64,000 bases of DNA from Sedimentisphaerales bacterium (GTDB lineage Bacteria > Planctomycetota > Phycisphaerae > Sedimentisphaerales > SM23-30), in NCBI GenBank assembly GCA_963666285.1, contig OY762711.1, one strand, 5' to 3'. The notes under the pieces are model-generated. The model saw nothing but the letters and a program-made list of their open reading frames with translations, was not told the DNA's origin and ran no database searches. Shown one piece after another: positions 14,588 through 60,955 of the stretch (the first letter of the stretch is position 1; each line of letters starts with the position of its first letter). The position numbers and the translations under genes were made by a program.

Positions 14588-14729
14588 AACTTACATTATA
14601 CGCATACCGCCCGCCCCCGCAACTAAATTCATCCTCCACCCTCAACCTGAGTTTTCTCGCTCTGTCCCCCTCTCACTTTCACCTCTTACCTCTCACTTCT
14701 CACTTCTCTCTTTTCACTTCTCCCGCACC

Positions 14730-15081
14730 AGCTTTAAAACAAGTCGTCCTTGCCAGCGAATTATTCCTGATGTCAACGTACATCAGGACACCTTAATTTT
14801 TCATTTTTCACTATTCATTTTTCATTTAATTGCGGCCTCTGCGAGAGACAAATCTTATCAAAATCACTCTGCTTAATATCTTCCAATCTCCATCCAAACC
14901 AACATCGTTAAGGGCATAGTAGCTCAGGCATCCCTGCCTGACAATAAACCAGCCCTCGCACAAGCGACAACCTCCTTTTCTTTTTTCATTTAGCGAAGCT
15001 TGCCTTCTTCCTCCTCGCTTATCTCTCCTAACTTTTCAACCTCAATTTCACATTTTTTTTTCATCCTTCATCCTTCATCCT
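14730..15081 (-). repeat. repeat copy A, distal part (paralogue of 19780-19921)
   Basis: Read on the minus strand it begins AGGATGAAGGATGAAGGATGAAAAAAAAATGTGAAATTGAGGTTGAAAAGTTAGGAGAG, matching the + strand at 19781-19840. It shares ...CTTGTTTTAAAGCT at the far end. An A-specific insertion of ~150 nt is present. Confidence 0.8.
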
Positions 15082-15800
15082 GTCGAGTAGGCATGTCGCC
15101 TCCTTTCATTAATTTAACAAATTCTGAGTTTCATTATATTTTGTGCAAGGAAACGCATGCCCCTCACAGAACCGGACTTGAAGATTTCCCTCATCCGGCT
15201 CTTCATTAATGCTCACTTTGACGGCTACATAAGGCAAAGTAATGTGCCTTGTAGAAGTCTCCGATAGAAGACGCTGTGGAACGTTCATGGTTTCTTCCAG
15301 TTCAGTGCCTGGCCAATATCCTGTTTCGCCTTTACACATTAATGCTGACCCCTTCGAGTGCCTCAAACTTCGAAACTCAACAGGCATTACCCTGTTTACT
15401 CCTCTACTATGAGTCAGTCCGACTACCAAAATGCCATACGGCCGCGTCACGGTTTCAGCTCCTTGGCCGCTTCCTTTCGGAGCACTTCGGTTCTCCCAAG
15501 TTCCAATGCAGTCAGTTCGTTTGCCCGCTACGGACTCAGACCCCGGCTCGTCGATATATGCTCGCCGTATTTCGCATATATCGATATTGGCTTCAGGCAT
15601 ATGAAAACCCTGGCCCGGATGCGATAAGGAATAATTTCGGGGCTCAACACCTTCACTTGCGTTGTGGCTGACAAACTCCTTTCCCGGGGCTTCGTACAGT
15701 TCGTTACCTCTCTGCACGCCCGGTGCTGTAATGGGCGGGTGGCTAGCCCTTACCCATGCCGGATTGGCCGGCTTGACTACATTAGCTTCGCTTGGCGCTC
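15082..15800 (-). mobile_element. ORF-less group II intron, copy 1 (in non-coding DNA)
   Basis: The 5' end is GAGCGCC. Domain V is GAGCCGGAUGAGGGAAAUCUUCAAGUCCGGUUC (15201..15169). The domain VI helix GAGGGGCAUG/CAUGCCU-A-CUC has a bulged A 7 nt from the 3' end, and the 3' end is ...CGAC. It is absent from the paralogous site at 19776/19777. It differs from copy 2 by 2 substitutions. Confidence 0.8.
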
Positions 15801-16064
15801 TCATACCTCATCCTTCAGGTGCCGTTTCACGGCACCTGTCTGGTCTGCCCACAAATTACCAATCTCAATTTCCAGGTTAACAAACGCCTTTTAATCTTTA
15901 TTTCATACCCCCTTCCGCGCCCTCTCCGCGCTCGTTCTCAGCCCGCCGTAAGCCTCCGCGCGGCCTCCGTTGCCCGCAATTGCCCGGCGTTTAACGCCGT
16001 AAAATCGACTTTGGTACCACCAAACCCAAAATCAGCCAAAATATTTCAACTTCTTGCACACAAT
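15801..16064 (-). repeat. repeat copy A, proximal part (inverted partner of 19516-19779)
   Basis: About 264 bp are nearly identical (~4 mismatches) to the reverse complement of 19516-19779. It contains the hairpin CAGGTGCCG-TGAAA-CGGCACCTG and a GC-rich core. Confidence 0.9.
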
Positions 16065-16527
16065 CTAACCCAAACAGATTAATATATGAACCGCCTCAGG
16101 CAAGATACCAAGACACAAAAATAAACAAACCAGAAGAGATACTCACAGATAAGGAACACCCAAAATTCTCGTCAGAAAATTTCGGTTAGAAATTTGAAGT
16201 CTAAAAAACAGATGGCATAATATGGCATAATATAGAAATAGATGATGGTTAAGTAGTCGCAACCTGAGAGGAAGTATGATGGTTAAGTAGTCGCGTAATC
16301 TGGGGAAGGTATATGGAAGCAGGCTCAATATCGAGTAAATGGATAGTGGATTTGATATCAGGTAAAAGATGGTAGTAAAAGTAGTTACAGTCTCAAACTG
16401 GAAATAGAAGCAGTTGTAATATCAGGATGGATCACGGCATAGCGAAGTCTATTTAGGGCTGTTTAGAGTCAGGCATATTTGATAATATTTTACCTTAACA
16501 TATTATACAGCAATATATTAAGATCGA

Positions 16528-17880
16528 TCAGTCAGCGGATAAATCATTACTTGCGATTGGCTGCAGACCGGGCTCGGTTTTGATAAGTTCCCGGCATTGA
16601 TCCACCGCGGCATTAAGCTGGTTGTCAAGCTGCAGCAACTGGCTGCAAAGCTCTGCGGTTGTTTCATTCTCATGCTGATGCTTTTTTTCTTCTGATTTCT
16701 CGCCGTTTTCGCGGCCATGCAAAAAGTTCATAAGTTCCGCCATTTTCTGGTAGTTATCAGCGTTGAACTCAACTTTTATATCCGGTTCCACACCCCAGGT
16801 CTCGGCTCCTTCCAGCCTGTGTACGCAGTTGCCGTTGGGCAGATAATAGTAATCCGTGGTAAGTTTAACTATGCCGCGGTTGCCCGGCAGCTTAAATGTT
16901 CTCTGGACCGATCCTTTGCCCCAACTTCGCACGCCAATAACCGTGGCACGTTTGTGGTCACGCAGAGCACCGGCAACAATTTCGGAGGCTGAAGCGCTGA
17001 TCTGATCGATGAGCACTACCATATGAAATTCAGGTAAGGTATTATCAGCTTTAGCGTTATGAACCTGTTCCGGGCTATTCTCACCGCGGGTTTTCAGTAT
17101 AACACCTTGCGGTATCAGCCGGTCGATTATGCCGGTCGCCGAGTACATCAGCCCGCCCGGATTACTGCGCAAATCTAATATAAGTGCTTTCATTTCAGTA
17201 TCTAACAGCTCGGCCATGATCTTATTGAAGTCGTCAAGAGTGCTGTCAATAAACTGGCTGATACGTAGATATCCGATGCCGTTGGCTTTGTCCAGATGAT
17301 AATCCCATTCGCCGTTTTCGTCTAGCCGCCAGCCGCGTACAGAGTGCATCTGAATCTTTTCGCGTTTGATATTAAATGTCTTTAGCTCGCCGGTGCTGCC
17401 GCGGTAAATTTGCAGCTTAAGTTCTGCTCCTTCAGGACCTTCCATCTCTTTGACCGCCCTGGCAACATTCCAATCCTGGGTACTTTTATCGTCAATTTCT
17501 ACGATTACATCGCCTGATTTTATGCCGGCTTTCCTGGCAGGTGACTGCTCCAGCGGCGTGATAATGACAATGGCATCGTCTTTCTGGTCGATGCTAATGC
17601 CTATGCCGGTGAAGTTTCCGCTGGTCTGCATGTTGAACTCTTTTTCGCGAGCAGGCGGAATGTATTCCGAATATGGGTCCAGCTCGCTGAGCATGCCGTT
17701 GATAGCGTCAGTTATGATCTTGCCTTCTTCGACCTGTTTGACATACCGTTTTTCTACCAGGTCGGTAACATCGACTAGCGGATCGAAGGCGTCGGGTGTG
17801 CTGGCATTGATGATGTTAATAGCTGTAAGTCCAGCGGTAACAATAAGAAACGAGATATAGAATTTGTGGTTTTTAATCAT
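16528..17880 (-). CDS. S41 C-terminal processing peptidase (Ctp/Prc-like) with PDZ domain
   Basis: NPGGLMYSA, the SASASEIVAGAL Ser motif and WGKGSVQ Lys motif are present, with a PDZ-like GIKSGDVIVEIDD segment. There is an N-terminal membrane anchor or signal. Confidence 0.85.
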   Translation of the reverse strand: MIKNHKFYISFLIVTAGLTAINIINASTPDAFDPLVDVTDLVEKRYVKQVEEGKIITDAINGMLSELDPYSEYIPPAREKEFNMQTSGNFTGIGISIDQKDDAIVIITPLEQSPARKAGIKSGDVIVEIDDKSTQDWNVARAVKEMEGPEGAELKLQIYRGSTGELKTFNIKREKIQMHSVRGWRLDENGEWDYHLDKANGIGYLRISQFIDSTLDDFNKIMAELLDTEMKALILDLRSNPGGLMYSATGIIDRLIPQGVILKTRGENSPEQVHNAKADNTLPEFHMVVLIDQISASASEIVAGALRDHKRATVIGVRSWGKGSVQRTFKLPGNRGIVKLTTDYYYLPNGNCVHRLEGAETWGVEPDIKVEFNADNYQKMAELMNFLHGRENGEKSEEKKHQHENETTAELCSQLLQLDNQLNAAVDQCRELIKTEPGLQPIASNDLSAD

Positions 17881-18088: not shown

Positions 18089-19249
18089 TTAACCGATATC
18101 GCGTTTTCTGAACAGCATAATAGCTATAGTTAGAGCGCCTAGCGTATATGCCATGGTATAGACAGCGGTCCTGACTATATATTTACTTCTCATACTGCGT
18201 TTTTGCAGCTCTTTTTCTTGTTTTTCGGCTGAAAGTTCATGAAGTGGTTTCGGCTCATCGTAAACACCATCGGTAACAACATAAAGATTTATCGACGGTA
18301 TAACTGCCAGTCCGCCCCAGGCACAGGTTGTAGGTAAAATCTGCTTAGGCTTTTCTGTAAAATACTTTACGTAATCGCCCAACGAGACATCGACAGATAA
18401 TTTACTGTCGTCAGTGGTCGGATCAGCCTGTTTGAGGGCAGCTGTTTTTTGCTCGGTTATCTCCTTATATGGCTTCATTGCGACTGGTCCGAGCTTGTAG
18501 TGGACCATTGTGCCAAGCAGAAAAGCGACGGCACAAATTATCAGGGTAGTTACCATATTGAACCGCATGGCAGCGGTAACCGAGATTGAGCAGAACATAA
18601 TCGAGGCCAGCATAACAAGTATGACCGGACCGATGAGGTGGGCTTTGAACTGGTTGTTGGCCGGGTTGTATTTCCAGTCTCGGTCGATAAAGCATAAGAT
18701 CAATATTGACAAGGAGTAAAGGATAGTCGAAAGAAATACCGTCGAGCTGCCAAACCGCCATTTATAGAAATAGTTGCCAAGCGCAGCCAGGGCAATGGCA
18801 ATAAACGAGGAGGCGAAGCTGAAGGTTATAACTGTATAGTCCGGCTCGTCAGAGGCTGACTCGAGCACGCCATGGCGGACAGTCATAAAGTATACCAGGA
18901 TAAGGAGATATTGTGCCAGCAGCACGGCACCGGTTACGCCGAGGAATTTGCCGAGTACGAATGCCGGTCGACTGACGGTCTTGGAGATAACGGTGAGCGC
19001 TGTCTTTCGGTCGATTTCGTCGGTAACGACGGTAGAGGCAGAGAAAACGGCGATGAACAGCCCGGCGACCAGCAGGTTAGATAAACCTATATCCCACATG
19101 AGTTTATTGTCTTCACGGATAGTGAACATTACCAGTGAAGGCGTGAACAGGAAAATGATCTGGGTTGCCAGGATGATAACGATATATATCGGCTGCCGCA
19201 GAGCTTCTGTAAATGTATTTTTACAAACGACTAATGTGTTTTTGATCAT
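18089..19249 (-). CDS. ABC-2/NosY-like multi-pass membrane permease
   Basis: The N-terminus FTEALRQPIYIVIIL...DEIDRKTALTVISKTVSRPAFVLGKFLG is typical of ABC-2 type permeases. There are at least 6 hydrophobic segments. No ATPase partner is in the window. Confidence 0.55.
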   Translation of the reverse strand: MIKNTLVVCKNTFTEALRQPIYIVIILATQIIFLFTPSLVMFTIREDNKLMWDIGLSNLLVAGLFIAVFSASTVVTDEIDRKTALTVISKTVSRPAFVLGKFLGVTGAVLLAQYLLILVYFMTVRHGVLESASDEPDYTVITFSFASSFIAIALAALGNYFYKWRFGSSTVFLSTILYSLSILILCFIDRDWKYNPANNQFKAHLIGPVILVMLASIMFCSISVTAAMRFNMVTTLIICAVAFLLGTMVHYKLGPVAMKPYKEITEQKTAALKQADPTTDDSKLSVDVSLGDYVKYFTEKPKQILPTTCAWGGLAVIPSINLYVVTDGVYDEPKPLHELSAEKQEKELQKRSMRSKYIVRTAVYTMAYTLGALTIAIMLFRKRDIG

Positions 19250-19258
19250 TGTTTATCA

Positions 19259-19314
19259 GGTATTTGATATTAGGTATTAGGTATTAGGTATTAGGTATTA
19301 GGTATTAGGTATTA
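19259..19314 (+). repeat. tandem heptamer array (GGTATTA)x8, 6 perfect units
   Basis: Seen directly: GGTATTT GATATTA followed by 6 x GGTATTA. The array ends 10 nt from the permease start codon and is followed by GGGGCGGTATCGCC, the anchor motif on the opposite strand. Confidence 0.95.
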
Positions 19315-19515
19315 GGGGCGGTATCGCCTATCGGCAAGACTAATCTGATATAGCCCCGCAAACTAATTATATTAGTACGCTTTTATGTATCGGTACGCTG
19401 CTAAAATTAAATCCAATTTGGGGTCAGAATGTGCCCGTGGCAGAATATATATCTTCTGACTGAGATTATACGATGGGTGGCCGGGTTGGTTCTGTATTAA
19501 TTAGAATGGAGTAAA

Positions 19516-19921
19516 ATTGTGTGCAAGAAGTTGAAATATTTTGGCTGATTTTGGATTTGGTGGTACCAAAGTCGATTTTACGGCGTTAAACGCCGGGCAA
19601 TTGCGGGCAACGGAGGCCGCGCGGAGGCTTACGGCGGGCTGAGAACGAGCGCGGAGGGGGCGCGGAAGGGGGTATGAAATAAAGATTAAAAGGCGTTTGT
19701 TAACCTGGAAATTGAGATTGGAAATTTGTGGGCAGACCAGACAGGTGCCGTGAAACGGCACCTAAAGGATGAGGTATGAAGGATGAAGGATGAAGGATGA
19801 AAAAAAAATGTGAAATTGAGGTTGAAAAGTTAGGAGAGAGAAGCTTCGCTAGATGAAAAATGAATAATAGAAGTGAAGAATTGAGGTGTTCGCCTGGCGG
19901 CTCACGGCTTGTTTTAAAGCT
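19516..19921 (+). repeat. repeat copy B, the uninterrupted paralogue ('empty site') of copy A
   Basis: It reads the GC-rich core, then the hairpin AGGTGCCGTGAAACGGCACCT, then AAAGGATGAGGTATGA-AGGATGAAGGATGAAGGATGAAAAAAAAATG without the 719-nt insertion. Confidence 0.9.
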
Positions 19922-20699: not shown

Positions 20700-22247
20700 C
20701 TATTTAATCTCTTCCATTTTTTCGATCTTGAAAAATGACTGTGTTACTTTATAGGCATCAAGCGGGTTGCCATCTATGACAGTAGAAGTAATATAAGCAG
20801 GACATTGGCTCTGGTGCGGCCTGGTAGCATCGATTGTATACCAATTATCATTTATCCATACCTGGGTCCAGGCATGGCCGTAAAAGGCATTCTTAACCGT
20901 AGCAAACTCGTCGACATAGAAATAACCAATCGCTACCCTGGCCGGTATCCCTGCAGACAGGCACATTCCCGCAGTTAAAACCGCATGCTCGGTGCAGTCA
21001 CCAGATTTGTTTTTAGCTATATCGAGAGCAGAAGCCCAACCTGTGCTGAGATTTTTATTGTTAATATATCCATGCACAAAGGCTTCGATTTTTTTAGCTG
21101 CTTTCCACGCATCTCTTTCATCTCCTACAGCTTCCAAGGAAAGTTTCCTGATGGCCGGATCATTATATTTGAGCCAGATATTATTAGGATTGAAACATTT
21201 TTCGGCCTGCAGATATTTATGCAAGGATGCATGAGTGTTATCATTAGATTTTTTAAATGCAAGTGATGGATCAATTTCAAAAATATCTGTCGGCAGCTGC
21301 TGACTGACCGGCGGCTGATAGGGCCTGACCTCAATGGTACATTCGTCATTTAATTGTTTGGCAATTACCTGATGATCGTCCTGATAGAAATCAACATCAG
21401 CTTTAGCAAATTTCAAATGGTAACGCATAGCTTTGGCCCTGGTCGGGTCTGGTGAATCAGCAGGGGCTTTGATCGAAACATCGGCGAGGATCTCAGCGAC
21501 ACCTTCATTGGCAAGAGCTTCTTCCATTTCGGCGACGATAAACTGGAACTTCAACCCCATCATTTCGATCGAAGATATCACATCATTACCATCTTCATCA
21601 ATATAGGAGACAGTCTCGATAGCTGTTCCTTTGAGGGTAAGAATAGTAGTACATTTGTACAGCGATTCATCGTAACCGGGCAGGTTAGTCTTATCACCGA
21701 TCACAACCTTGTAATCGACTTCCGACATATCGCCAGGCGAAAAAGCTGTGCCGGTAACGGTAACACCCGGAACAATACCATCCTTCATTGCTTCCTGCAT
21801 GAGCAGTTCTGCTGGCTGGACCTTGTCAGATATTTCCATCTCAAACTTGTTAGTACTGCCACTGATAGCCTGAAGAATATCATACTTGCCCTGCAGGTTG
21901 AGACTGCCATCAACCTTAACTACCGCCGGACCAAACTCCATAGATGAATTGAAACCGCTGAGTTTATATTTAGAAGCCTGGCTGTCCCATTTGAACTCGG
22001 TAGCTTCGGATACTGCTGCGGTAATCTTTGCACCGGCCCGACCGATATTGAGTTTGACGAATTCGCGAGACTTGACAAACTCCGGTGAAGTTTCGCTTAC
22101 GTGATGAATATAGCCGGCTTTCTGGTCGTTGAGCATAACCTTAAACCATTGATCGGCAGTTTCTTCCGGCAGCTGTTCAACAGCAGCAACCGCAGTTGCA
22201 AACATAACCAATATTAGAGATGATAATAATTTTTGTCGAGTAGGCAT
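20700..22247 (-). CDS. secreted transglutaminase-like cysteine protease-fold protein. Coordinates use the intron-internal ATG; the spliced form would be join(22957..22954,22234..20700).
   Basis: The Cys-His-Asp transglutaminase core is present (SGDCTEHAVLTAGMC...GHAWTQVW...IDAT). The N-terminal signal peptide is either MPTRQKLLSSLILVMFATAVAAV (unspliced) or MKKLLSSLILVMFATAVAAV (spliced). Confidence 0.8.
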   Translation of the reverse strand: MPTRQKLLSSLILVMFATAVAAVEQLPEETADQWFKVMLNDQKAGYIHHVSETSPEFVKSREFVKLNIGRAGAKITAAVSEATEFKWDSQASKYKLSGFNSSMEFGPAVVKVDGSLNLQGKYDILQAISGSTNKFEMEISDKVQPAELLMQEAMKDGIVPGVTVTGTAFSPGDMSEVDYKVVIGDKTNLPGYDESLYKCTTILTLKGTAIETVSYIDEDGNDVISSIEMMGLKFQFIVAEMEEALANEGVAEILADVSIKAPADSPDPTRAKAMRYHLKFAKADVDFYQDDHQVIAKQLNDECTIEVRPYQPPVSQQLPTDIFEIDPSLAFKKSNDNTHASLHKYLQAEKCFNPNNIWLKYNDPAIRKLSLEAVGDERDAWKAAKKIEAFVHGYINNKNLSTGWASALDIAKNKSGDCTEHAVLTAGMCLSAGIPARVAIGYFYVDEFATVKNAFYGHAWTQVWINDNWYTIDATRPHQSQCPAYITSTVIDGNPLDAYKVTQSFFKIEKMEEIK

Positions 22248-22953
22248 GTCGCCTCCTTTCATTAATTTAACAAATTCTGAGTTTCATTATATTTTGTGCA
22301 AGGAAACGCATGCCCCTCACTGAACCGGACTTGAAGATTTCCCTCATCCGGCTCTTCATTAATGCTCACTTTGACGGCTACATAAGGCAAAGTAATGTGC
22401 CTTGTAGAAGTCTCCGATAGAAGACGCTGTGGAACGTTCATGGTTTCTTCCAGTTCAGTGCCTGGCCAATATCCTGTTTCGCCTTTACACATTAATGCTG
22501 ACCCCTTCGAGTGCCTCAAACTTCGAAACTCAACAGGCATTACCCTGTTTACTCCTCTACTATGAGTCAGTCCGACTACCAAAATGCCATACGGCCGCGT
22601 CACGGTTTCAGCTCCTTGGCCGCTTCCTTTCGGAGCACTTCGGTTCTCCCAAGTTCCAATGCAGTCAGTTCGTTTGCCCGCTACGGACTCAGACCCCGGC
22701 TCGTCGATAGATGCTCGCCGTATTTCGCATATATCGATATTGGCTTCAGGCATATGAAAACCCTGGCCCGGATGCGATAAGGAATAATTTCGGGGCTCAA
22801 CACCTTCACTTGCGTTGTGGCTGACAAACTCCTTTCCCGGGGCTTCGTACAGTTCGTTACCTCTCTGCACGCCCGGTGCTGTAATGGGCGGGTGGCTAGC
22901 CCTTACCCATGCCGGATTGGCCGGCTTGACTACATTAGCTTCGCTTGGCGCTC
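22235..22953 (-). mobile_element. ORF-less group II intron, copy 2 (inside codon 2 of the transglutaminase-like gene)
   Basis: The same 719-nt element as 15082-15800, with domain V at 22354..22322. Both copies share the 5' exon flank TATGA and the first 3' exon base A. Confidence 0.8.
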
Positions 22954-23057
22954 TCATAATGATATACCTTTGGCTGTATTAGTAAACTTTTGCCGTTTTT
23001 AAGTTGCAAAAACAGCGAAAGTTAACGTGTATATTTCAGAGAGCAATACAGCATTTG

Positions 23058-47040: not shown

Positions 47041-47100
47041 ATTCGTGCCTATTCGTGTGAACCCTGCACTGTACGGTGCAAGGGGATTCGTGGTTAAAAT
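47041..47100 (+). repeat. 60-nt 'TTCGTG-hairpin-TTCGTGGT' element, copy 1
   Basis: The sequence is ATTCGTGCCTATTCGTGTGAACCCTGCACTGTACGGTGCAAGGGGATTCGTGGTTAAAA. It has the same architecture as 52838-52900 and 53680-53742. Confidence 0.85.
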
Positions 47101-47178
47101 TTCTTGCCGTTCAAACAAAATTTGGCGGAGCAGCAACAAGCTACCCCGCCTCGAAAGGATCTTCAACAGAAAAAGATA

Positions 47179-51450: not shown

Positions 51451-51956
51451 CGGCTGAGTAAAAAACACCAGGCAGCGTCACCTGCCTGGCATAAATATAA
51501 CCGGGCACGGATAGCCCGCAAAAATAATTACGGAAGGACTTGTTATGACCGCAAAAAACTTAAAACGCATCGGCATCGCCGAAACCATAACTCTTCACTC
51601 TTCACTCTTAGTTCTTCACCCAGCAAGGTTTCATCCTTCATAATTCATAATTCATTCGAATCTGCCTCCCCCGGTTCTTGCCGGAACGATTTAAAGCAGG
51701 CAGGGCAACTGGCGAGCTTGCCACATCCGTTCGCCACATATAGTAACTAACTTTGACAAGTAAATATAGACAGGTTCCAGTAGCCAGGTTTCAGGTTCCA
51801 GTGAAGACATAAAATCAGCTTCGCCGAAGGCGAGACCTTCCCTAACACCTAATACCCAATACCTAACACCTGTTAAATCGACCTCCTTTTTCAAAGCGGC
51901 GAGCTCAACGCACTCGCCGGTAAACGTGGGGCCGGGGCGGCAGGGACGCTGCTCAA

Positions 51957-52412: not shown

Positions 52413-52600
52413 CTGCCTGCCAGTAACCTTATGACGATCAAATTAAGATGAGCGATAGCGACAACCGGCCCTTATGCCTTATCCCTTATCCCTCATCCCT
52501 GAATTCATTAACCATGTTACTATTGTTAAACATTAAGTATAAGCCGCTGTCGGCGGCGTAGCCGACAGCTTTTTTCAAAAACACTAAACCACAGATAAAC

Positions 52601-52837: not shown

Positions 52838-52900
52838 AATCCGTGTTAATCCGTGTGAACCCTGCACCGGATGGTGCAAGGGGATTCGTGGTCCAAAAAA
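52838..52900 (+). repeat. 60-nt TCCGTG-hairpin-TTCGTGGT element, copy 2
   Basis: The sequence is AATCCGTGTTAATCCGTGTGAACCCTGCACCGGATGGTGCAAGGGGATTCGTGGTCCAAAAAAAC. Confidence 0.85.
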
Positions 52901-52932
52901 ACAATCATCAAAGAACAGGAAACTTAAAACAA

Positions 52933-53473: not shown

Positions 53474-53687
53474 TATTATTTCAGATGACGCTTGGCTATA
53501 TTTTATCGATAGATGGTTGCATCCGAGTAGGCCAACGACTGCCCTGGTGTACAGAATGATGATCCTTGAAAATAAAACATATAAACATGATTGGAAAATC
53601 CCATCATTGTCAACCATGTACAGGTTAATCGAAAATCGTATTTCAAAAAAAACTCAGAAATATTTCCGTAAAGGAATTTATTCGTGA
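53463..53687 (+). CDS. hypothetical phage early protein
   Basis: A 74-aa ORF with an 11-nt overlap with the previous gene. Confidence 0.4.
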   Translation: MANDIISDDAWLYFIDRWLHPSRPTTALVYRMMILENKTYKHDWKIPSLSTMYRLIENRISKKTQKYFRKGIYS

Positions 53688-53742
53688 CCATTCGCGTGAA
53701 CCCTGCACCGGATGGTGCAAGAGAATTCGTGGTCCAAAAAAA
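53680..53742 (+). repeat. 60-nt TTCGTG-hairpin-TTCGTGGT element, copy 3
   Basis: The sequence is ATTCGTGACCATTCGCGTGAACCCTGCACCGGATGGTGCAAGAGAATTCGTGGTCCAAAAAAAC. The following 35 nt up to the ATG are also conserved with copy 2. Confidence 0.85.
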
Positions 53743-53769
53743 CAATCATTAAAGAACAGGAAACTCAAA

Positions 53770-53961
53770 ATGAAAGGACTATTAACAATAACAATATGTA
53801 TCGCACTCGCCTGGCTGCTGGCAGCTATCGGGGTATGGCTGAACATATGTAAAAGAGACTTTACCGTAACCGGCATGATAGTAATCTTATGCCTCATCGG
53901 CATCGCCTGGGACCTGACATGCAGCAAGAGCAGCGACAACCAAGAGACTACTGGCCGATAA
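53770..53961 (+). CDS. small two-TM membrane protein
   Basis: The sequence is MKGLLTITICIALAWLLAAIGVWLN...GMIVILCLIGIAW. It has the same leader as the gene at 52933. Confidence 0.45.
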   Translation: MKGLLTITICIALAWLLAAIGVWLNICKRDFTVTGMIVILCLIGIAWDLTCSKSSDNQETTGR

Positions 53962-55283: not shown

Positions 55284-55381
55284 CGGAGATAAAATGAGCC
55301 ATCAGCGAAATATCAAATCAGCCCCGCCCCAGGCGGCACCTTCCCTGATGCCTTATCCCTTATCCCTTATCCCTGTATAAC

Positions 55382-60011: not shown

Positions 60012-60099
60012 CGAACACCTTAACTATTAGTTTTTAGTTATTAACTATTAACTTGCCAGGCGTGATGGACCACGCCGCAGCATAGAACGGAGTCTTATT

Positions 60100-60872: not shown

Positions 60873-60955
60873 TTAAGCGTGAGCGGAGCGAACACCGCCC
60901 CTAACACCTAACACCTAATACCAAATACCTTTTATAGCGACAAAGGATTGAAGCT

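Follow-up and report, generated by a model that had tools for sequence, protein, structure and literature searches.

A 719-nucleotide group II intron inserted after ATGA, and a family of relatives found at apparent translation start regions

A 64,000-nucleotide (nt) stretch of contig OY762711.1 (assembly GCA_963666285.1) from a Sedimentisphaerales bacterium (Planctomycetota, Phycisphaerae), referred to below as the window, carries two nearly identical 719-nt insertions, copies A and C, together with an empty paralogous site, B. The insertions match group II introns without an open reading frame (ORF), and relatives in many bacterial phyla are found, as they are, mostly directly after ATGA tetramers in a Shine-Dalgarno (SD) context; we hold this target pattern and the anatomy of the intron with high confidence. 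In about half of the downstream exons the sites are clearly predicted to be real gene starts, with the junction one base past the start codon. The usual view of bacterial group II introns is that they keep out of genes or home to single sites. We favour, with a probability of roughly 0.6, the interpretation that the window element is a non-autonomous member of a group II lineage that inserts into start regions and brings with it its own in-frame replacement start. Feature coordinates are collected in Table 1.

Boundaries and identity of the intron

Direct reading of both strands showed the insert of copy A to be exact relative to paralogue B. On the minus strand copy A consists of the hairpin CAGGTGCCGTGAAACGGCACCTG, the 15-nt target AAGGATGAGGTATGA, the insert, which begins GAGCGCC and finishes CCTACTCGAC, and then AGGATGAAGGATGAAGGATGAAAAAAAAATG from 15081 downwards, whereas B reads CACCTAAAGGATGAGGTATGA directly followed by AGGATGAAGG on the plus strand, with nothing between. 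Since a shift of either boundary of copy A by a single base destroys the match to B, the boundaries are unambiguous and a target-site duplication is absent. An earlier examination of these letters without database searches (hereafter the sequence-only reading) had set the intron ends by this filled/empty pair and had seen neither shared junction bases nor a duplication, and it proved correct base for base; its placement of the insertion within a heptamer array, 15 nt past a hairpin, also holds, the arrays being recovered by Tandem Repeats Finder (TRF). The flanks of A and B form a 334-nt inverted repeat (15801–16069 with 19511–19779, and 15017–15081 with 19780–19844, each 98% identical). This flanking repeat has diverged by about 2%, as against 0.3% (2/719) for intron copies A and C, which indicates that the insertion is younger than the duplication and that B, examined as a possible scarred deletion derivative, is a genuine empty site.

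Both copies match the Rfam covariance models RF02005 (domains 1–4) and RF00029 (domains 5–6). The former, the best domain 1–4 model after clan competition, scored 115.9 bits (E = 4e-32, gathering score 49) over its full length (model positions 1–225), with the match starting at intron nt 34, and the latter 55.5 bits. By these matches the insert is identified as a group II intron, as had been proposed, and as one lacking an ORF. It ends in AC, as expected for the 3' AY terminus of this class; domain 5 (GAGCCGG...CCGGUUC) has the expected length of about 34 nt and the AGC triad, and an unpaired A lies 6 nt from the intron's 3' end. The junctions fit reverse splicing (retrohoming or retrotransposition), also the view of the sequence-only reading. 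A DDE transposon or insertion sequence was considered and rejected: no bases are duplicated at the junctions, and a Pfam scan of the ORF that reads through them was blank.

A Pfam scan of the insert and of ten neighbouring ORFs revealed no reverse transcriptase (RT). An autonomous intron would carry an RT/maturase ORF in domain 4; at 719 nt the window copies do not, about 1.25 kb of that ORF having been deleted. Relatives, whose loci are numbered with the prefix L, align with the window intron from nt 1–5 onwards. Its positions 1–567 and 596–719 align to the RT-carrying L039, and positions 1–554 and 582–641 to L030. Because both of its ends align in this way to RT-carrying introns of about 2.0 kb, in which the ORF starts near position 480, the window element is evidently an internal-deletion derivative that has kept about 85 nt of the 5' region of the RT ORF.

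At both copies (15109–15804 and 22262–22957, minus strand) an ORF of 231 codons opens at the exon ATG, continues through the intron and terminates at a TAA just before an SD sequence within the intron. It was rejected as a real gene: it has no Pfam match and is interrupted by a stop at codon 30 in most relatives. The long open frames found in one sub-clade show no codon periodicity (diversity 0.144, 0.151 and 0.181 at codon positions 1, 2 and 3). Used as a protein query, this ORF returned 254 database "proteins", most plausibly artefacts of gene calling on copies of the intron; their alignment led to 78 loci in species-representative genomes, a set outside which the source genome of the window lies. 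The denominators used below are unique sites: 64 for 5' exons, 61 for the hairpin survey, 46 for 3' exons and spliced frames, and 33 for domain-6 sequences. Exact-protein look-ups for the window element gave one extra site, L001, on a metagenome contig, and a DNA scan of metagenomes recovered a sub-lineage with the 5' end GAGYG, but the 719-nt element itself did not turn up again.

The relatives are spread over Planctomycetota (Phycisphaerae), Lentisphaerota, Spirochaetota, Campylobacterota, Gammaproteobacteria, Omnitrophota and other phyla. Those of about 1.9–2.0 kb encode a 445-amino-acid RT/maturase (TIGR04416, 348 bits, residues 39–409) that stops right after the maturase region and is too short for an endonuclease domain. 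Its similarity to solved RTs is only generic (LtrA, 9e-49; class IIC RTs, about 1e-44), and no named class was assigned. In metagenomes this RT family comprises more than 7500 clusters below E = 1e-60, the top 120 of them at least 64% identical and mostly on contigs of about 2 kb.

Insertion sites and their recognition

The 5' exon ends in ATGA at 55 of the 64 sites, from many phyla, and ATG occupies positions -4 to -2 at 58. G is dominant at -15 to -12, giving an SD-like block and a general pattern of a GGAG-like motif, 6–9 nt and ATGA at the junction; a strict SD motif at -18 to -6 is present at 53% of sites, against 8% of the 1129 ATGA tetramers taken from these flanks as controls. On the other side of the junction, 43/46 sites have A at +1. 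When metagenome contigs were scanned with an exact pattern for the GAGYG sub-lineage, ATGA turned up once more, plus TTGA and GTGA, and at what is apparently one shared site, with similar upstream flanks, one of the metagenome contigs L094 and L101 has TTGA and the other GTGA. As these tetramers are alternative start codons plus A, they support a start-codon logic over one of plain ATGA.

At 22 of the 46 sites the frame obtained on splicing is either long or still open at the edge of the locus, the other two frames being mostly closed within 1–40 codons. Pfam domains (Lon N-domain, PglD_N, radical SAM) start at residues 4–13 of the predicted spliced products, and further interrupted genes encode citrate synthase, a sulfatase with a signal peptide and an HMA lipoprotein. 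In a metagenome-assembled genome of Sulfurimonas sp. (JAUZSC01), at least 11 RT-carrying introns that are nearly identical to one another (L048–L055, L062, L070–L075) follow the ATGA of as many different genes, those for Lon protease and citrate synthase among them, which argues for retrotransposition to a motif and not for homing to one gene. These copies would offer a good natural system for the study of the intron family.

In the window, copy C parts ATG-A from AA AAA TTA... of a 515-codon gene for a secreted transglutaminase-like protein. Its spliced product starts MKKLLSSLILVMFATAVAAVEQ..., and translation from an ATG within the intron is predicted to give MPTRQKLLSS...; the longest mechanically called ORF of this host gene (20700–22262, minus strand) begins at a different ATG inside the intron (22262), upstream of the intron SD. 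Outside the intron, copies A and C have in common only TATGA before the 5' junction and A after the 3' junction. The sequence-only reading had noted this shared TATGA and A, and the observation stands, though the motif is not an incidental one: it is a start codon plus one base, read by exon-binding site 1 (EBS1) of the intron through pairing with its exon partner, intron-binding site 1 (IBS1).

The target of copy A, by comparison, is a pseudo translation-initiation site, with a spliced frame of only 5 codons (MKDEG and a stop). Insertion into a heptamer array is accounted for by a variant unit, AAGGATGAGGTATGA followed by A, which evidently mimics SD plus ATGA and offers a 6-bp match to EBS1 UCAUAU; within the array, that match explains why the junction follows GGTATGA and not a GGATGA unit.

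The hairpin upstream of copy A had been likened to the terminator-like targets of class C introns. An intron of that kind, with the stem-loop at 15816–15838 as the main target determinant, would agree with the position of copy A 15 nt after a strong 9–10 bp hairpin, with the 7-bp stem that ends 31 nt upstream of the junction at L001, and with the shortness of the conserved IBS1 core. However, a perfect stem of at least 7 bp within 60 nt was found at only 7 of the 61 sites surveyed, at distances of 3–42 nt, so the class C analogy has to be given up; the sites have a mean folding z-score of -0.47, and there is no such hairpin near the junction of copy C or at most relatives. EBS1 pairing extends over 5–7 bp and covaries with the exon, the best model for domains 1–4 is RF02005 at 116 bits, and the long domain 6 contrasts with the compact one of class C. 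Targeting by the hairpin thus seems to us hardly credible.

The terminal loop of domain 1 in which EBS1 is expected always contains UCAU plus 2–3 variable bases that pair with the exon as far as positions -5 to -7: UCAUAU with GUAUGA in the window, UCAUGGU with ACCAUGA at L013, and UCAUUUC with GAAAUGA at L006. Sites that do not end in ATGA have loops to match (GUUCGA with UCGAAC, GGAUAA with UUAUCC, AAAUGU with ACAUUU). Judged from these paired changes, recognition is of the canonical EBS1–IBS1 type with a conserved AUGA core, and the U that precedes EBS1 (15605) is a possible partner of the +1 A in the 3' exon. As for the SD block, UCCUU or CUCC occurs in many members within the single-stranded region in which EBS2 is expected, and the duplex energies of this candidate with its own exon and with other exons were -5.85 and -5.15 kcal/mol (permutation p = 0.011), with variable spacing. 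This weakly suggests an anti-SD EBS2 as the basis of SD recognition; our confidence in any specific mechanism for that step is low.

A putative translation start in domain 6

All 33 domain-6 sequences contain an AGGAG-like motif followed after 5–10 nt by ATG YCT ACT CKA N, which ends at the 3' splice site. After domain 5 the layout is UGUGAGGGGCAU, a variable insertion that brings domain 6 to a total of 52–126 nt, the AGGAG-like motif, the spacer and AUG. With 13 nt from the start of the intron AUG to the splice site and 4 nt from the exon ATGA, the two AUGs share one reading frame into the host gene. In one sub-clade (L018, L019, L021, L030, L031, L033, L036, L046 and L080) a domain-6 module of about 55 nt (..UUGAAUAUUGUGACACUCCGCAAACCGAAAGGGCGGAGAAACAGGGAAUACAAA..) with a GAAA-capped hairpin is conserved.

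Minimum-free-energy folds of the 33 sequences predict the same architecture in 30, with the ATG paired in 30 and part or all of the SD in 31. In the predicted basal helix CAU pairs with AUG and an A is bulged 6 nt from the 3' end, while in the distal helix the SD pairs with a CUCCU-like strand; an RNAalifold consensus of 22 sequences has compensatory changes at five of the six distal pairs. With moderate confidence, based on these folds and on the shared frame, we propose that the domain-6 SD-ATG would act as a replacement translation start that is masked in the folded ribozyme. Alternatively, the AGGAG...AUG arrangement could be purely structural, serving branching, or could bind ribosomes that protect the intron RNA, the frame then being coincidental. 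The pairing of both motifs in 30/33 predicted folds would suit this, as would the long, structured domain-6 stems noted for IIF introns (PMC3753933) and the precedent of Ll.LtrB, where ribosome association protects the intron (cited in PMC12584367). Yet the GGAG core always lies on the 3' strand, at an SD-like distance from an invariant AUG, whereas the flanking pairs and the loop vary; moreover the frame matches, and the lineage is precisely the one that interrupts start codons. We consider a purely structural or protective role quite improbable.

The interpretation that we favour may be set out as follows. A lineage whose RT is without an endonuclease domain would spread by reverse splicing into translation initiation regions, its RNA reading the start codon plus one base by means of a fixed EBS1 core (UCAU with AUGA) and 2–3 variable pairs. 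Copy A would have landed on an SD-ATGA look-alike and copy C on the true start codon of the transglutaminase-like protein. Splicing is predicted to restore the SD, ATG and ORF exactly, and from unspliced or unfolded RNA the domain-6 SD-ATG may allow the host protein to be made all the same, with MPTRQ (window) or MSTRQ (most relatives) in place of MK and with the first exon codon changed from A+NN to C+NN. Such a start would keep the positive n-region of signal peptides, and it would render insertion at a start codon tolerable even in housekeeping genes. Mobilisation would presumably be provided in trans by the RT of a relative.

We can go further, at somewhat less than even odds, and suppose that this very abundant family, mostly of uncultured lineages, has evolved a fourth target specificity: active integration into the ribosome-binding site plus ATGA of arbitrary genes, housekeeping ones included, its damage neutralised by the structured, in-frame SD-AUG of domain 6. 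Host proteins could then arise with splicing or without it, possibly as two N-terminal isoforms in a ratio that reports the folding or splicing state of the intron. A lineage that enters many different genes at the start codon and supplies its own in-frame start would give a retroelement a new means of persisting within essential genes and would be a natural example of splicing wired to translation initiation, and it might provide a programmable tool to tag or control genes at their first codon. At such loci gene callers are likely to mis-annotate N-termini, either with a start inside the intron (as in the ORF 20700–22262) or with spurious ORFs through the ribozyme.

Several observations weigh against a start-region lineage with its own replacement start. 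No RT-carrying copy was seen in the window, and the 5' end of the intron is GAGCG where the canonical sequence is GUGYG; GAGYG is also found in the RT-carrying L030 and L039 and in metagenome copies, most relatives having GUGCG or GUGUG. The intron SD and ATG, being paired in the predicted native fold, may rarely reach ribosomes, the SD-like strand is half of a conserved helix and its conservation therefore partly structural, and the in-frame relation is one fixed property of the family, with a 1-in-3 chance of coincidence. The UCCUU/CUCC motif is absent from the Sulfurimonas lineage, the most prolific one, and the candidate EBS2 does not account for the choice of SD-bearing ATGA sites over other ATGA tetramers. 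Lastly, very short frames are all that follows at roughly a fifth to a quarter of sites, copy A and L001 (22 codons) among them.

The weak EBS2 signal and the sites that are not gene starts also speak for an alternative in which only EBS1 (NNAUGA) and the +1 A are recognised, EBS1 covariation being alone clearly demonstrated. The association with start sites would then come from later selection, insertions within genes or antisense to them being lost and those at start codons surviving through splicing or the intron SD-ATG. Context-blind integration should, however, give more intergenic, SD-less ATGA sites than start-codon sites (a rough estimate, unmeasured), and besides the excess of SD motifs over control tetramers, even the non-genic sites (copy A, L001 and L057) have SD-like purine blocks. 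Selection alone is thus a rather unlikely explanation, and the start-region lineage remains the one that we prefer.

Table 1. Positions of the intron copies, their exons and other features in the window (position 1 is its first letter)
Feature	Position	Strand	Remarks
Copy A, 719-nt ORF-less group II intron	15082–15800	-	5' GAGCG, 3' CGAC; filled/empty comparison and Rfam
5' exon target of copy A, AAGGATGAGGTATGA	15801–15815	-	IBS1 GTATGA 15806–15801; ATGA 15804–15801; SD-like AAGGATGAGG 15815–15806
Hairpin CAGGTGCCG-TGAAA-CGGCACCTG	15816–15838	-	15 nt upstream of copy A junction
3' exon of copy A, heptamer array (AGGATGA)x3	15060–15081	-	TRF; first base A is the conserved +1 position
Empty paralogous site B, uninterrupted array (AAGGATG)x5.3	19765–19801	+	Junction between 19779 and 19780; TRF
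Rfam matches in copy A	RF02005 15531–15767; RF00029 15082–15203	-	Covariance models
EBS1 UCAUAU in domain 1 terminal loop GGGUUUUCAUAUGCCU	15599–15604	-	Pairs with GUAUGA (copy A, L001) or UAUGA (copy C)
Candidate anti-SD-like EBS2 UCCUU, single-stranded stretch after GAGCCCCGAAA	15626–15630	-	Complementary to AAGGA at exon -15 to -11
Domain 5 (GAGCCGGAUGAGGGAAAUCUUCAAGUCCGGUUC)	15169–15201	-	RF00029; compensatory pairs at columns 7/27 and 11/21
Extended domain 6	15082–15166	-	Basal helix GAGGGGCAU/AUGCCU(A)CUC; bulged branch-point A 15088; predicted folds
Domain 6 distal helix, CGUUUCCUU paired with AAAGGAGGCG	15155–15147 (CGUUUCCUU)	-	A/U-rich loop; predicted folds
Intron-borne SD AAAGGAGG, spacer and ATG	15092–15106	-	SD 15106–15099; 4-nt spacer CGAC 15098–15095; ATG 15094–15092
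Copy C, same intron	22235–22953	-	2 mismatches in 719 to copy A; Rfam and direct comparison
ATGA, start codon and first base of codon 2 of copy C host gene	22954–22957	-	AAGG at -17 to -14
3' exon of copy C, rest of 515-codon transglutaminase-like protein	20700–22234	-	PF01841; classical signal peptide
Short tandem heptamer arrays	2139–2171, 14671–14722, 14796–14827, 19254–19316, 19765–19801, 51590–51871, 52469–52500, 55342–55374, 60020–60053, 60900–60930		

Known intron systems and other features of the window

A 2015 review of group II introns lists three target specificities, namely homing sites, terminators and attC (PMC4424553). In the literature searched, which did not cover some older relevant papers, we found neither generic start-codon targeting nor an SD-AUG in domain 6 described; there is a modest but real chance that the pattern has already been noted somewhere.

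One IIB1 lineage at start and stop codons, the Avi.groEL type, is described in PMC12584367 as having a 300–700-nt subdomain Ia near the 5' end and as occurring in proteobacteria at one conserved gene site. Like the family studied here it occupies initiation or termination codons and preserves a functional translation signal, the UAA stop of groEL becoming UAG on insertion; its codon-targeting mechanism is likewise unexplained. Through its ATGA sites (55/64) the family shares the placement at or beside an initiation or termination codon. It differs in that the window intron measures 719 nt as a whole, without a 300–700-nt 5' insertion, in the 445-amino-acid RT of its relatives, which is devoid of an endonuclease domain whereas Avi.groEL-type introns belong to the CL1 lineage with RTs of about 600 amino acids that include one, and in its occurrence in many unrelated genes of many phyla. 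Here the preserved signal would be the SD plus ATG inside domain 6.

With class C introns (IIC, including IIC-attC) the family has in common a generic motif as target, a short IBS1 core, an RT without an endonuclease domain and many copies per genome. IIC introns, however, read a DNA stem-loop, terminator or attC, just upstream and outside genes, while this family follows no hairpin rule and inserts inside the second codon. EBS2–IBS2 pairing is absent from IIC introns; here a tentative anti-SD-like EBS2 candidate occurs in many members and is missing from others. The ORF-less introns mobilised or spliced in trans in Thermosynechococcus elongatus (PMC2882425) and in dnaN and RIR of Trichodesmium (PMC12584367) have similarly lost the RT ORF by internal deletion and kept the ribozyme, and they too occur as several near-identical copies with a presumed dependence on the protein of a related intron. 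Their type of target is different, and for the window element no RT partner was identified. A resemblance to the IIB-like introns of classes E and F (PMC3753933, PMC3552965) lies in an RT/maturase of about 420–450 amino acids without an endonuclease domain and in the decisive role of EBS1–IBS1 pairing, and the long, structured domain-6 stems of IIF introns (PMC3753933) recur in this family. The characterised members Cl.be.I2, Pe.th.I2 and Ge.ur.I1 were chosen for their adjacent EBS1 and EBS2 pairings. PMC3753933 makes no mention of AUG, start codons or Shine-Dalgarno sequences.

The GC skew of the plus strand is negative across the whole window (1–64000, down to -0.24). Copies A and C share the G-rich strand, and their orientation, with most genes; the empty site is on the opposite strand. 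A strand bias is reported in PMC8919778 for introns whose RT is without an endonuclease domain, and filled sites on the G-rich strand would fit it, a remark that goes no further than the three sites.

The inverted repeat around A and B (15017–16069 and 19511–19844) encloses a 3.4-kb segment with genes for an S41/PDZ C-terminal processing peptidase (16528–17880) and an ABC-2-type permease (18089–19249); an invertible or a duplicated regulatory region are two possibilities raised by this arrangement. Heptamer arrays of many different units (AACTTCT, TCTCACT, ATTTTTC, TATTAGG x9, AAGGATG, CCTAACA, CCCTTAT and others) crowd the intergenic regions of the window, and are reminiscent of cyanobacterial heptamer repeats. 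The array struck by the intron is the sole one with a unit resembling SD plus ATGA. A family of 91-nt direct repeats, unrelated to the intron, occurs at 47041–47131, 52839–52929 and 53680–53770, with a GC-rich hairpin (CCCTGCACCGGATGGTGCAAGGGG) and short ATTCGTG-like repeats at its flanks.

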